This document shows positions 26,183 through 28,966 of a DNA stretch of 63,163 nucleotides, piece by piece; the first letter of the stretch is position 1; the number at the start of each line of letters is the position of its first letter. Under the pieces are notes generated by a model, which was not told the origin of the DNA, did no database searches, and saw only the letters and a program-made list of their open reading frames with translations. Location: assembly GCA_022704525.1 (NCBI GenBank), contig JAKJGF010000001.1:1-63163 (forward strand), read 5' to 3'. Position numbers and translations under genes: made by a program. This DNA comes from Bacillota bacterium. Lineage in GTDB: Bacteria > Vulcanimicrobiota > SpSt-956 > JAKJGF01.

Positions 26183-26635
26183 ATGGATAGTTTAAATGTA
26201 AATGTTCAGAAGGGATCGACCAGGTTCATAACAAGTAAACAACCTGAAAAGTCGGAACCTAAAGACAGAGTAGACCTTTTAAATGAACAGGTTGATAAAG
26301 GAACATTATCAAAGGATATAGCTGCCAGATTAAAAGAACTTAAAAAGCAGAATATTCAGGATAATCAACCGGATACAGGAGTGACAAAATGTTATTTACC
26401 TGTGTATGGCGATGACTATGGCCCCTGGTTTAAAGGTAAAGATGAGAAAATATTATTCCCGAAACCTCCTCTGTGCTATCTTCCGATGAAAGAGGGAATA
26501 ACAGTTGATCCACCCATACTCTGTTATGCACCAATGAAAGATAAAGCAATAATTGATCCACCCATACTCTGTTATGCACCAATGAAAGCAGAAGAAAAAA
26601 TGTGGCCCAAACCTTTATGCTACCTTGCAGGATAA
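26183..26635 (+). CDS. candidate RiPP precursor / radical-SAM substrate protein with five C-Y repeat motifs
   Basis: GAAGGAGA RBS. 150 aa with no signal peptide. It has only five Cys (70, 98, 114, 130, 146), each followed by Tyr: KCYLPV, PPLCYLPMK, PPILCYAPMK (twice), KPLCYLAG-stop. Radical SAM/SPASM genes lie immediately downstream. Confidence 0.7.
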   Translation: MDSLNVNVQKGSTRFITSKQPEKSEPKDRVDLLNEQVDKGTLSKDIAARLKELKKQNIQDNQPDTGVTKCYLPVYGDDYGPWFKGKDEKILFPKPPLCYLPMKEGITVDPPILCYAPMKDKAIIDPPILCYAPMKAEEKMWPKPLCYLAG

Positions 26636-26657
26636 TATAGCTTGTTCTGAGACAGAG

Positions 26658-26690
26658 AAAAAGAATAGGATATCCTATTCTTTTTAATTT
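26658..26690 (+). terminator. stem-loop (partial terminator/attenuator) between the precursor and the radical SAM genes
   Basis: AAAAAGAATAGGA-TA-TCCTATTCTTTTT followed by AATTTTTAT. Confidence 0.6.
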
Positions 26691-26779
26691 TTATAAAAAG
26701 GGTTTATCTTTAGAATAAAGAAAAAAAAAGAGAATCTTTTTTTGTGGGAGTAATATTTTATAAGGAGATTATTTTATTA

Positions 26780-27847
26780 ATGAAAGAAAAGGAGAATCCC
26801 TATTCTAAACTGAACTATATTTTAGAGTTGACGGAAAAATGTAATAACAGATGCTATTACTGTTATAATATCTGGAAAATGGAAGGTCGTGGAGGTTCAA
26901 AAAAAGAACTTACCACTAAAGAATGGAAGTTTGTCATAAAAAAGCTTCGACAAGAAACAGGCTGTACCCACCTGGCCATAACCGGAGGAGAACCTACTCT
27001 CAGACCTGATTTTTTAGAAATACTTGGTTTTATAGATAATATGGGTATAAGTCCGGTTTTAATTACAAATGGAAGTAGATTAACAAAAGAATTTATAAGA
27101 GATTGTATGGAAAGAGGAGTAAGACTTTTTGAGTTGCCTCTCCTCGGCCCGAACAGGGAAATCCATAATGCAATCTCCAGAAATGAATGTTGGGATAGTG
27201 TTATTGAGGCACTGGTGGATATAAGGACAATGTATGGACGTCCAATAGTGGTATTTGTTGCTACCAATAAGAATATACCTTATTTCGAAGAAACTCTGAA
27301 ACTTGCCATAGCACTTGATACAGGTGGTATGATGTTAAATCGTTTTAATCCCGGTGGGGAGGGTATAAAATATCTGGATGAACTTTTACCTTCTGCAGAA
27401 GATTTTGAAAAGGTACTTGAAATTGCCAATCGTCTTGCCTATGAATATAGATATCCCATAAGTTGCTCCATCCCTGTTCTTCCATGTATTATAAATATGG
27501 CAAATTATCCTTATCTTTCAACAGGTTTCTGTGCTGCAGGAACAGATAGAGCATATTACACTATAGGTGCAGATGGACGAATGAGACCATGTAATCATAC
27601 GACTACAGTTCTTGGAAATTTTCTTACTGAAAAATTTGAAGATATGATAAATAAACCTGTTATGAAGGAATTTGTAAAGGCTATACCACCCATTTGTGAA
27701 CCCTGTCCTATGGCCAGAGAGTGCCAGGGAGGATGTAAGGCTACTGCAGAGGTATGCTACGGATCTCCCAGGGAAATGGATCCATTTCTTAAAAAGAATC
27801 TTCACCGCCATCCTGCTTACAGTGGTGATTATTCAGGAGAGATATAA
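26780..27847 (+). CDS. radical SAM / SPASM-domain enzyme (paralogue 1)
   Basis: Start MKEKENPYSKL is parallel to paralogue 2 (the tracked ORF starts at 26744). CNNRCYYC (CxxxCxxC) at residues 22-29; GGEPTL; full SPASM signature GADGRMRPC...CEPCPMARECQGGC...AEVC. Confidence 0.85.
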   Translation: MKEKENPYSKLNYILELTEKCNNRCYYCYNIWKMEGRGGSKKELTTKEWKFVIKKLRQETGCTHLAITGGEPTLRPDFLEILGFIDNMGISPVLITNGSRLTKEFIRDCMERGVRLFELPLLGPNREIHNAISRNECWDSVIEALVDIRTMYGRPIVVFVATNKNIPYFEETLKLAIALDTGGMMLNRFNPGGEGIKYLDELLPSAEDFEKVLEIANRLAYEYRYPISCSIPVLPCIINMANYPYLSTGFCAAGTDRAYYTIGADGRMRPCNHTTTVLGNFLTEKFEDMINKPVMKEFVKAIPPICEPCPMARECQGGCKATAEVCYGSPREMDPFLKKNLHRHPAYSGDYSGEI

Positions 27848-27850
27848 GTA

Positions 27851-28966
27851 ATGAAGGAAACACAGAATCCCTATTCTAAACTCCATTATGTAATAGAACT
27901 TACGGAAAAATGTAATAACAGATGCCATTACTGTTATAATGTATGGAAACTTGATAGAACAGAAAAATCTTCAGGGGACCTTACAACAGAACAGTGGAAA
28001 TTTCTTATAGATAAACTGCACAGGGAAACAGGTTGTACCCACATAAGTATTTCAGGAGGAGAACCCACCATAAGGGAAGATTTTATGGAAATTCTTTCCC
28101 ATATTCACAGTTTTCAGATAGAGTCTATTTTGATTACCAATGGAAGTAATCTTTCCAGAGAATTTATAATAAAATGTATGGAAAGAGGAGTAAGAACTTT
28201 TGAATTACCCCTTCTGGGACCTACAAGAGAGCTACATAATGAGATTGCGGGAAATGATTGCTGGGATAAGATTATAGAAGGTATTGTAGACATAAGATCC
28301 AGTGGAGGCAGACCTGTAGTAGTTTTTGTAGCGACAAATAAAAATCTTCCATATTTTGAAGAAACCTTAAAACTTGCCATAGCACTGGAAACTGATTGTA
28401 TGATGCTTAACAGATTTAATCCCGGCGGAGAAGGTCTCCGCCATATAGAAGAGCTTTTACCTGATGTTCCATCTTTTGAGAAGGCTATGGAAATTGCCAA
28501 TAGATATGCCCGGGAATACAGATATGCAATAGCGAGTTCTATACCTGTCCAACCCTGTCTTATAAATCTGACTCTCTATCCCTATGTGAGAGTTGGATTC
28601 TGTGTGGCAGGAACAGAAAATGGTTATTTTACTATAGGCCCTGATGGAAAAATAAGACCCTGTAATCACAGTGTGTCTATCCTGGGGGATTTTTTTAAAG
28701 AGACCTTTGAAGAAATTATAAAGAAGCCTTTAGTTGAAAAGTTTAGAGTAGCTGTTCCTGAGATATGTAAAGTCTGTTCTCTTTCAGTAATCTGTCAGGG
28801 CGGCTGTAAAGCCGCTGCCGAGGTTTGTTCCGGTTCTCCCGGAGATTTAGATCCTTTTTTAAAGAAAAATCTTCATCTCCATCCAGCTTATTTAAAGGAC
28901 CATCCTGCTCATAGTATGAGGGAGAAGTTAAAAGCAATGGAAGAACAGCAATGTCATGGAAGATAG
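27851..28966 (+). CDS. radical SAM / SPASM-domain enzyme (paralogue 2)
   Basis: AGGAGA RBS. CNNRCHYC, GGEPTI, GPDGKIRPC...CKVCSLSVICQGGC...AEVC. Roughly two-thirds identical to paralogue 1 by eye. Confidence 0.85.
   Translation: MKETQNPYSKLHYVIELTEKCNNRCHYCYNVWKLDRTEKSSGDLTTEQWKFLIDKLHRETGCTHISISGGEPTIREDFMEILSHIHSFQIESILITNGSNLSREFIIKCMERGVRTFELPLLGPTRELHNEIAGNDCWDKIIEGIVDIRSSGGRPVVVFVATNKNLPYFEETLKLAIALETDCMMLNRFNPGGEGLRHIEELLPDVPSFEKAMEIANRYAREYRYAIASSIPVQPCLINLTLYPYVRVGFCVAGTENGYFTIGPDGKIRPCNHSVSILGDFFKETFEEIIKKPLVEKFRVAVPEICKVCSLSVICQGGCKAAAEVCSGSPGDLDPFLKKNLHLHPAYLKDHPAHSMREKLKAMEEQQCHGR

Follow-up and report, generated by a model that had tools for sequence, protein, structure and literature searches.

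A Cys-Tyr repeat protein next to two paralogous radical SAM/SPASM enzymes in Vulcanimicrobiota: a probable enzyme substrate and its place in a wider family

Radical S-adenosylmethionine (SAM) maturases that carry a SPASM domain are, to our knowledge, a main source of new chemistry on peptides and proteins, and each new pair of enzyme and substrate motif has so far yielded a new type of bond. PqqE crosslinks a Tyr and MftC also targets a Tyr in a small peptide, and a precedent for a thioether between adjacent residues is the thiomorpholine ring of the enteropeptins. The anaerobic sulfatase-maturating enzymes (anSMEs) modify sulfatases before their export, and the QhpC protein, which carries a leader, ends in the periplasm. 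Thioethers of Cys within a small protein are formed by the radical SAM/SPASM enzyme QhpD (PMC10114670). Here we describe a locus in a window of 63,163 nucleotides, which is the whole stretch of DNA that was analysed (contig JAKJGF010000001.1 of assembly GCA_022704525.1, Vulcanimicrobiota), in which a gene encoding a 150-aa protein with five Cys-Tyr (CY) sites is followed by two genes encoding paralogous radical SAM/SPASM enzymes. Comparisons at the sequence level indicate that the 150-aa protein is probably the substrate of both downstream enzymes and is modified at its CY sites, and in our best reading the system would be a Vulcanimicrobiota-specific, repeat-expanded offshoot of a widespread radical SAM modification of Cys-Tyr sites.

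The precursor or substrate gene (26183..26635 in the open reading frame (ORF) list; coordinates without a locus name are those of the window, on the forward strand unless stated otherwise) follows the ribosome-binding site GAAGGAGA, which ends 7 nt 5' of the ATG, and encodes a leader (aa 1-68) and a repeat core (aa 69-150, 26387..26632). The protein contains five Cys residues at positions 70, 98, 114, 130 and 146, spaced 28/16/16/16 and each followed by Tyr, exactly as a first-pass annotation of this DNA had reported and as a recount showed to be correct; at 7 Tyr per 150 aa the random chance of all five Cys preceding Tyr is about 2e-7. The sites of the core read TK-CY-LPVY..GPWF (C70), PL-CY-LPMK (C98), IL-CY-APMK (C114 and C130) and PL-CY-LAG (C146), and a 48-nt DNA tandem repeat with 85% matches (26486-26593) comprises the two CYAPMK units. 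No model of Pfam or NCBIfam matched the precursor or any of its relatives.

These relatives were collected by a word-seeded search of 5.8 billion proteins, which returned four of them (P0002-P0005), and by a search of 1.84 billion representatives with a hidden Markov model of the precursor, which added six more and one unrelated repeat protein (P0126-P0132). In total there are about ten precursor clusters among 15 billion proteins, all with the N-terminal segment DRVDLLNEQVxKGTLSxDIAARIKELK followed by three to eight CY dipeptides, and the small ORF is hence a genuine, conserved gene with leader and repeats, as had been assumed. The sites of the relatives are mostly P-x-(T/L)-C-Y-A-P; Tyr stands after 52 of the 54 Cys in ten precursors, and the same dipeptide recurs beside distant single-copy enzymes, which upholds the earlier choice of Cys-Tyr as the defining feature of the site. 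None of the ten precursors has an N-terminal hydrophobic segment, and the leader helix and the CY sites are the only conserved features of the protein. A second type of site, T-K-C-Y-M-P-C-Y-D-E-G-P-W-F, is found in P0005, P0127, P0128 and P0129, and the first site of the window precursor (TKCYLPVYGDDYGPWFKG) is a degenerate version of it in which the second Cys is replaced by Val. Precursors that are more divergent (L009 2504-3046, L013 4308-4832, P0128 and P0129) contain this longer site twice; it continues with R or K, and its two CY dipeptides stand four residues apart. The 336-aa protein P0131 (L096 139-1149) has the same leader, four CY sites and the same radical SAM gene downstream, and it carries a C-terminal extension of about 190 aa that is first Gly-rich and then Gln/Met-rich.

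All related loci have the enzyme genes downstream of the precursor, within the limits set by the length of the contig: both genes are present in L001, L002, L005, L010-L013 and L016-L019, and the first gene alone fits on the contigs L003, L004, L007 and L096. Homologues of the 150-aa ORF are thus always next to radical SAM genes, and an absence of such linkage would, by the first-pass annotation, have spoken against its proposal. The named genomes that encode the precursor are metagenome-assembled genomes (MAGs) of Vulcanimicrobiota, formerly Candidatus Eremiobacterota. With a conserved leader, a variable number of repeats and strict adjacency to modifying enzymes, the locus agrees with one part of the general definition of ribosomally synthesized and post-translationally modified peptides (RiPPs), that of a ribosomal precursor with recognition region and variable core beside its modifying enzyme.

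The two enzymes, rSAM1 (355 aa from ATG 26780; 26780..27847) and rSAM2 (371 aa; 27851..28966), are co-directional, separated by 3 nt and 64% identical over 351 aa without a gap, close to the two-thirds that had been estimated by eye. The listed ORF of rSAM1 opens at GTG 26744, and ATG 26780, which sits behind AAGGAGA, is likely the real start; counted to this ATG, the gap between precursor and rSAM1 is 144 nt, so that the ORF coordinates, the gene order, the 3-nt spacing and the gap of about 145 nt in the first-pass annotation were all recovered. The radical SAM core (PF04055) was recognised by Pfam with E-values of 1e-23 and 9e-23, and the SPASM domain (PF13186) scored above the gathering score in both enzymes (E 2-4e-7). 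The motif CNNRCxYC occupies residues 21-28 of both, and C21, C25, C28 and the GGE-type SAM-binding motif G69-G70-E71 are invariant in 26 homologues; in the C-terminal half, C236, C251, C271, C306, C309, C315 and C319 are invariant and C326 is nearly so. Pfam and the alignment therefore confirmed the CxxxCxxC motif near the N-terminus and the complete SPASM signature that had been described. SPASM domains with two auxiliary [4Fe-4S] clusters have seven or eight conserved Cys (PMC9477430), and with eight conserved Cys both auxiliary clusters are apparently fully ligated here. As the CxxxCxxC motif starts at residue 21, there is no room for an N-terminal RiPP recognition element (RRE). A check of both enzymes and of 15 flanking genes (14.5 to 39.6 kb) revealed no RRE/PqqD domain, peptidase or transporter, which bears out the earlier statement that RRE, leader peptidase and exporter are missing; a peptidase or transporter may be encoded elsewhere.

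No NCBIfam family displayed reaches its cut-off with either enzyme. The best match is PqqE (TIGR02109) with 100 and 120 bits against a cut-off of 381, followed by NirJ2 (86-90 bits), MftC (TIGR03962; 67-70 against 265), StsB (58-69 against 625), HxsC (49-64 against 268), PapB (49 against 340) and SkfB (46 against 300), and anSME is outside the 25 best families of either enzyme. In a sequence search of the PDB, PqqE (6c8v) was the only full-length match (E 7e-15 with the single sequence, 5e-25 with a profile), and the matches to anSME, SkfB and CteB cover mainly the radical SAM core, those to anSME being partial and weaker than PqqE. The AlphaFold2 (AF2) model of rSAM2 (predicted local distance difference test (pLDDT) 91) fits SuiB, anSME, SkfB and PqqE about equally well when superposed, with template modelling (TM) scores of 0.61-0.69 and 16-19% identity.

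Of the described systems, PqqE with PqqA is the nearest by sequence and resembles the locus in pairing a short SPASM enzyme without fused RRE with a Tyr of a small ribosomal peptide. However, the enzymes score below the PqqE cut-off and no pqq genes, including those for PqqA, B, C and D, are present in the window region examined; the motif is C-Y-x-P instead of the E-x3-Y of PqqA, the position of the Asp ligand of PqqE is Cys (C315), and the sites are repeated and the enzyme duplicated. Membership in MftC fails on the bit scores, on the precursor end, which is CYLAG and not Val-Tyr, and on the lack of mft genes, and membership among the maturases of sacti- and ranthipeptides (AlbA, SkfB, StsB, PapB and CteB) fails on the missing RRE, the missing PqqD match in Pfam and the scores of StsB, SkfB and PapB. 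PapB acts, like the enzymes here would do, on a tandem short Cys motif, freyrasin having six CX3D repeats for one radical SAM/SPASM enzyme, but it has an N-terminal RRE and differs in motif, spacing and family score. The Hxs system (HxsA with HxsB and HxsC) likewise has a peptide with short motifs in tandem and two radical SAM maturases, and the chemistry is not established in either system; in contrast to the pair described here HxsB and HxsC are not close paralogues, and their motif is unrelated. Compared by description, QhpD/QhpC resembles the locus in its logic, an RRE-less SPASM enzyme working on a short Cys motif in a protein that is exported afterwards, and differs by its Asp/Glu acceptors, its dedicated peptidase and its dehydrogenase subunits, none of which were found here.

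In a neighbour-joining tree, the first genes of all loci form one orthologous clade (clade 1, with rSAM1) and the second genes another (clade 2, with rSAM2), from which it follows that the duplication is old and that neither copy was lost. The clades differ by fixed residues at only seven positions, and the most suggestive of them is residue 229, seven residues before C236 (codons ~27464-27466 in rSAM1 and ~28535-28537 in rSAM2), which is Cys in 9/9 rSAM1 orthologues and in 8/11 single-copy outgroups and Ser in 9/9 rSAM2. The idea that each paralogue serves one type of site was rejected, as P0002 and L010 have only P-T-C-Y-A-P sites and still have both enzymes. It is possible that the pair reflects sequential chemistry, a heterodimer or a division of labour along the array.

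The locus had been called an orphan, and it turned out to be one branch of a large enzyme family. In a survey of one genome per species, 271 genomes contained a relative of the enzymes, and 80 loci were returned, all from MAGs. Among the loci listed, four of Vulcanimicrobiota type encode enzymes that are 69-72% identical to those of the window; the others have a single-copy enzyme that is 37-49% identical and no parvulin neighbour, and their hosts belong to Anaerolineae/Chloroflexota, Planctomycetota, Phycisphaerae, Lentisphaerae, Armatimonadetes, Myxococcota and other groups. Of the 79 loci whose upstream DNA is long enough, 74 have a CY dipeptide in the same-strand ORF that ends at the enzyme start. 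The more specific (T/M/L)-C-Y was found in 63/75 upstream ORFs against 43/1587 other ORFs of at least 100 aa from the same loci, a contrast that is somewhat inflated because the candidate ORF richest in CY was picked. The site logo of the wider family is P-x-(V/A/I)-T-C-Y-(E/A/D)-P-x-P.

The partner proteins themselves are of several kinds. In Anaerolineae they have about 230 aa, start in a Tat-like manner with SRRDFMK…LTRC and have a C-Y at about residue 36 that is invariant and a T-C-Y-x-P at about residue 131 that is nearly so; this group comprises at least 398 clusters that are annotated only as 'hypothetical' or 'twin-arginine signal'. Partners of a second kind are signal-anchored, 110-180 aa in length, carry Thr/Pro-rich linkers, two to five CY sites and a C-terminal LLxxLLxEGRFPxxVAxxL, and those of planctomycetes and Lentisphaera have 250-800 aa and one to four sites. 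A 90-aa peptide (L014/L015 5643-5915) has one site, GGMVCYMYS, and then a helix-like segment INKALNDGTITLEMAQKLLKE; it adjoins a single-copy enzyme of 48% identity in the 'follower' order that is also seen in short Anaerolineae-type partners. An RR motif is present in 25 of 71 partners and an N-terminal hydrophobic stretch in 39 of 71, and eight partners tested belong to no Pfam or NCBIfam family and contain no sulfatase domain. Several distant loci have two or three tandem paralogous CY-motif genes before one enzyme gene (L022 1559-3217, L028 3017-3922, L034 1004-1926, L041 3176-3892, L087 and L095 2458-3989).

Besides the sites, a candidate docking element connects the window precursor with these partners. 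The conserved helix-turn-helix of the leader (aa 30-54, VDLLNEQVDKGTLSKDIAARLKELK; 26270..26344), delimited by alignment and hhalign, holds many of the invariant columns of the precursor alignment. When the window-type precursors were compared with the Anaerolineae family by hhalign, a single match was obtained that aligns residues 31-53 of the window protein with 92-114 (LDELVAxGExxxxVADLVQE) and is weak but specific (E 5e-4, probability 31%). A regular expression for this helix matches 30/75 partners against 33/1587 control ORFs, and the helix start and the first Cys are separated by 37 residues in the window and in most Anaerolineae proteins and by 35-47 in the relatives. For the Anaerolineae partner P0151, an AF2 model (mean pLDDT 73) shows the helix-turn-helix segment with pLDDT >90 and places the two CY sites in loops with pLDDT <50, a geometry of firm hairpin and flexible sites that would suit an enzyme which holds on to a folded handle and draws the site into its barrel. 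A fold search of the PDB with this model gave no match at E <0.2.

We propose that the helix-turn-helix of the leader docks the RRE-less enzymes, that the C-terminal 80 residues offer five flexible P-x-(L/T)-C-Y-(A/L)-P sites and that a 5'-deoxyadenosyl radical would start a modification at each of them for which the Cys and its neighbouring Tyr are both required. The product would preferably be an intramotif crosslink, either a thioether from the Cys sulfur to Tyr or a C-C link of the kind made by PqqE and MftC. This product is favoured, as Cys and Tyr are invariant at every site and PqqE/MftC, the nearest characterised enzymes, bond Tyr; the preference drawn from these analogies is a weak one, and we give the crosslink somewhat less than half of the total probability. 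In the history of the lineage, one enzyme would have been duplicated with both copies kept, and a substrate without signal peptide would have multiplied its sites in tandem. Several points weigh against this picture. The modification of the sites is proposed from sequence and its chemistry is a guess, and no peptidase or exporter is nearby that would point to the fate and function of the product. The suggested full Cys ligation of the auxiliary clusters does not favour a thiolate mechanism at an open site as put forward for sacti- and ranthisynthases, and the requirement for two enzymes is left unexplained by the types of site, which do not map one-to-one onto the enzymes; nor do they support the two chemistries by the two paralogues that the first-pass annotation had considered. 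All related sequences come from MAGs or metagenomes, and the weakness of the helix match and the inflation of the upstream-ORF contrast mentioned above count on the same side.

An alternative that has to be taken seriously, though we regard it as unlikely, is an anSME-like reaction in which hydrogen abstraction from Cbeta converts each Cys to Calpha-formylglycine, Tyr and Pro serving recognition only and the aldehydes being catalytic or crosslinking. The enzymes are short (anSMEs have about 370 aa), RRE-less and have eight Cys in the SPASM region that would fully ligate the auxiliary clusters, and the structural match to anSME (TM 0.67-0.69) ranks among the best; an N-terminal signal or an RR motif is present, as in sulfatases, in about half of the distant partners, so that a short local Cys motif would here too be modified in a protein that is exported later, and a gene similar to formylglycine-generating enzyme (FGE) is located upstream in some loci. 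Membership of the anSME family was nevertheless rejected: the first-pass annotation had named a firm position inside the anSME clade as an outcome that would speak against its substrate proposal, and neither NCBIfam nor the PDB, with partial matches weaker than PqqE, places the enzymes there, so that this objection does not arise. In addition, C-Y-x-P is unlike (C/S)-x-(P/A)-x-R in that Arg is missing and Pro is shifted, Tyr is invariant at all sites across phyla, which exceeds the usual need of recognition, and no partner tested is a sulfatase. It is clearly less probable still that the CY units are crosslinked and excised as several copies of a redox cofactor per precursor, in the manner of pyrroloquinoline quinone or mycofactocin. 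The Tyr-directed PqqE and MftC are among the best family matches, the locus is conserved in the lineage amid housekeeping genes and the repeats look like those of a multi-core precursor, but no peptidase and no gene similar to PqqB/C/D or MftB/D/E is nearby, and partners of 110-800 aa with one to five sites and often an export signal point to a modification that stays bound to the protein.

Even lower is the probability that we assign to the enzymes acting on something else, such as a tetrapyrrole as NirJ and AhbD do, with the small ORF as a mere conserved neighbour. The models of NirJ2, AhbD and MoaA score about as high as those of the peptide maturases, and the tie between peptide and enzymes is drawn from sequence data; against this, ORFs with CY sites adjoin the enzyme in at least eight phylum-level groups although the partners are unrelated in sequence and length, and no tetrapyrrole or cofactor genes are nearby. 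The reading of the 150-aa protein as a substrate modified at Cys-Tyr is therefore retained. As to the nature of the product, which the first-pass annotation had described as RiPP-like and had left open towards a modified intracellular protein, its pairing of enzyme and substrate is supported, but a RiPP natural product is not favoured over protein modification: the partners in the wider family, mostly of 110-800 aa and with export signals, agree no less well with protein modification of the anSME or QhpD kind than with a secreted RiPP.

Neither the enzyme nor its partner is named by any curated family, solved structure or source annotation (NCBIfam 2026, Pfam 2025, PDB 2026), and a very limited literature search, 2021 overviews included, met no radical SAM/SPASM system for Cys-Tyr. 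Judged from databases and general knowledge, the chance that the system is truly undescribed is even or a little better. We consider it an evenly balanced proposition that C-Y-x-P marks an undescribed radical SAM modification of Cys-Tyr, possibly a protein-derived crosslink or cofactor, which would be made in the cytoplasm on proteins that Tat or Sec often export afterwards. Its hosts would number hundreds of species, from Chloroflexota, Planctomycetota, Lentisphaerota, Armatimonadota, Myxococcota and Vulcanimicrobiota, and the window would show the most extreme form, with five sites in tandem and a pair of subfunctionalised enzymes. Should the wider family act on exported proteins, this would be the third case of radical SAM maturation of extracytoplasmic proteins after anSME-sulfatase and QhpD-QhpC, and it would provide the first functional clue to several hundred 'hypothetical' Tat-signal proteins of Anaerolineae and related groups. 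The clade is well delimited, the motif is invariant and readily assayed, and the natural five-site substrate amplifies a mass shift, which makes the chemistry directly testable.

Directly 3' of the precursor stop, an AU-rich perfect hairpin is followed by a T-run (26658..26685). L001, L005, L010 and L013 have an equivalent hairpin in this position (z-scores -3.7 to -6.0), which makes five loci with the window, and promoter-like sites are located upstream of the precursor. The conserved hairpin with its T-run fits a leaky terminator that keeps the substrate above the enzyme, and such a weak terminator between precursor and enzyme genes would provide a surplus of substrate relative to enzyme. 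A scan of window positions 24800-29400 with Rfam gave no match.

Upstream of the precursor, the related loci with enough flanking DNA share a further gene that the first-pass annotation had overlooked, the conserved order being lipoprotein parvulin peptidyl-prolyl isomerase (PPIase), precursor, rSAM1 and rSAM2. In the window this gene (24951..26056) encodes a lipoprotein with three parvulin (PpiC-type) PPIase domains that were recognised as Pfam Rotamase domains, and it occurs in L001/L003, L005, L009, L010/L011, L013, L016-L019 and the contig of P0132, where the divergent L009, L013 and P0132 contigs also carry a multi-domain version. The start in the ORF list, GTG 25088, is wrong; translation starts at CTG 24951 behind the ribosome-binding site AAGGAGG (24936-24942), which opens a signal peptide with lipobox, and the homologues begin LKRTLIC…FAGC with TTG at the position of the CTG. 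A functional tie between the parvulin and the CY system is possible, judging from the conserved gene order. The idea of a dedicated cytoplasmic isomerase for the Pro-rich sites was weakened, since the parvulin is a lipoprotein with a signal peptide.

The gene before the parvulin (23326..24876) encodes an exported protein with tetratricopeptide repeats (TPRs), a Thr/Pro-rich linker in which PTDTPVPLPQ is repeated, and an FGE-like domain (Pfam FGE-sulfatase, E 7.5e-47), whose best NCBIfam matches are GldK, EgtB, SenA and PvdO, all below cut-off. Its conservation is partial: L010/L018 and L017 have a homologue upstream, whereas L001 and L013 lack one, and the gene was therefore set aside as an unproven core component. 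Enzymes of the FGE family act on Cys or form C-S bonds, and by this analogy it is conceivable that the FGE-like protein is tied to the CY peptide. The parvulin and the exported FGE-like/TPR protein may hint at extracytoplasmic partners of the product, and a lineage-wide conservation of gene order could explain both neighbours equally well.

The genes around the locus are otherwise housekeeping genes, encoding a Ser/Thr kinase, RsmE, PlsX, MnmG, RF1, PrmC, AroD/E and RecJ. Positions 14001-16000 of the window are of odd composition (GC 0.30, GC skew +0.35, AT skew +0.28) and coincide with a 489-aa ORF (14552-16021) that belongs to no Pfam family. On the other side of the locus, a thioredoxin-reductase-like flavoprotein gene on the reverse strand (29291-30319; below all NCBIfam cut-offs) is convergent on rSAM2 and is kept at this place in L001, L010/L011 and L016-L019, though not in L002 and L013. 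A Ser/Thr protein kinase with zinc ribbon and TPR repeats is encoded on the reverse strand (20682-23138), divergent from the FGE-like gene, and the same layout is found in L010.

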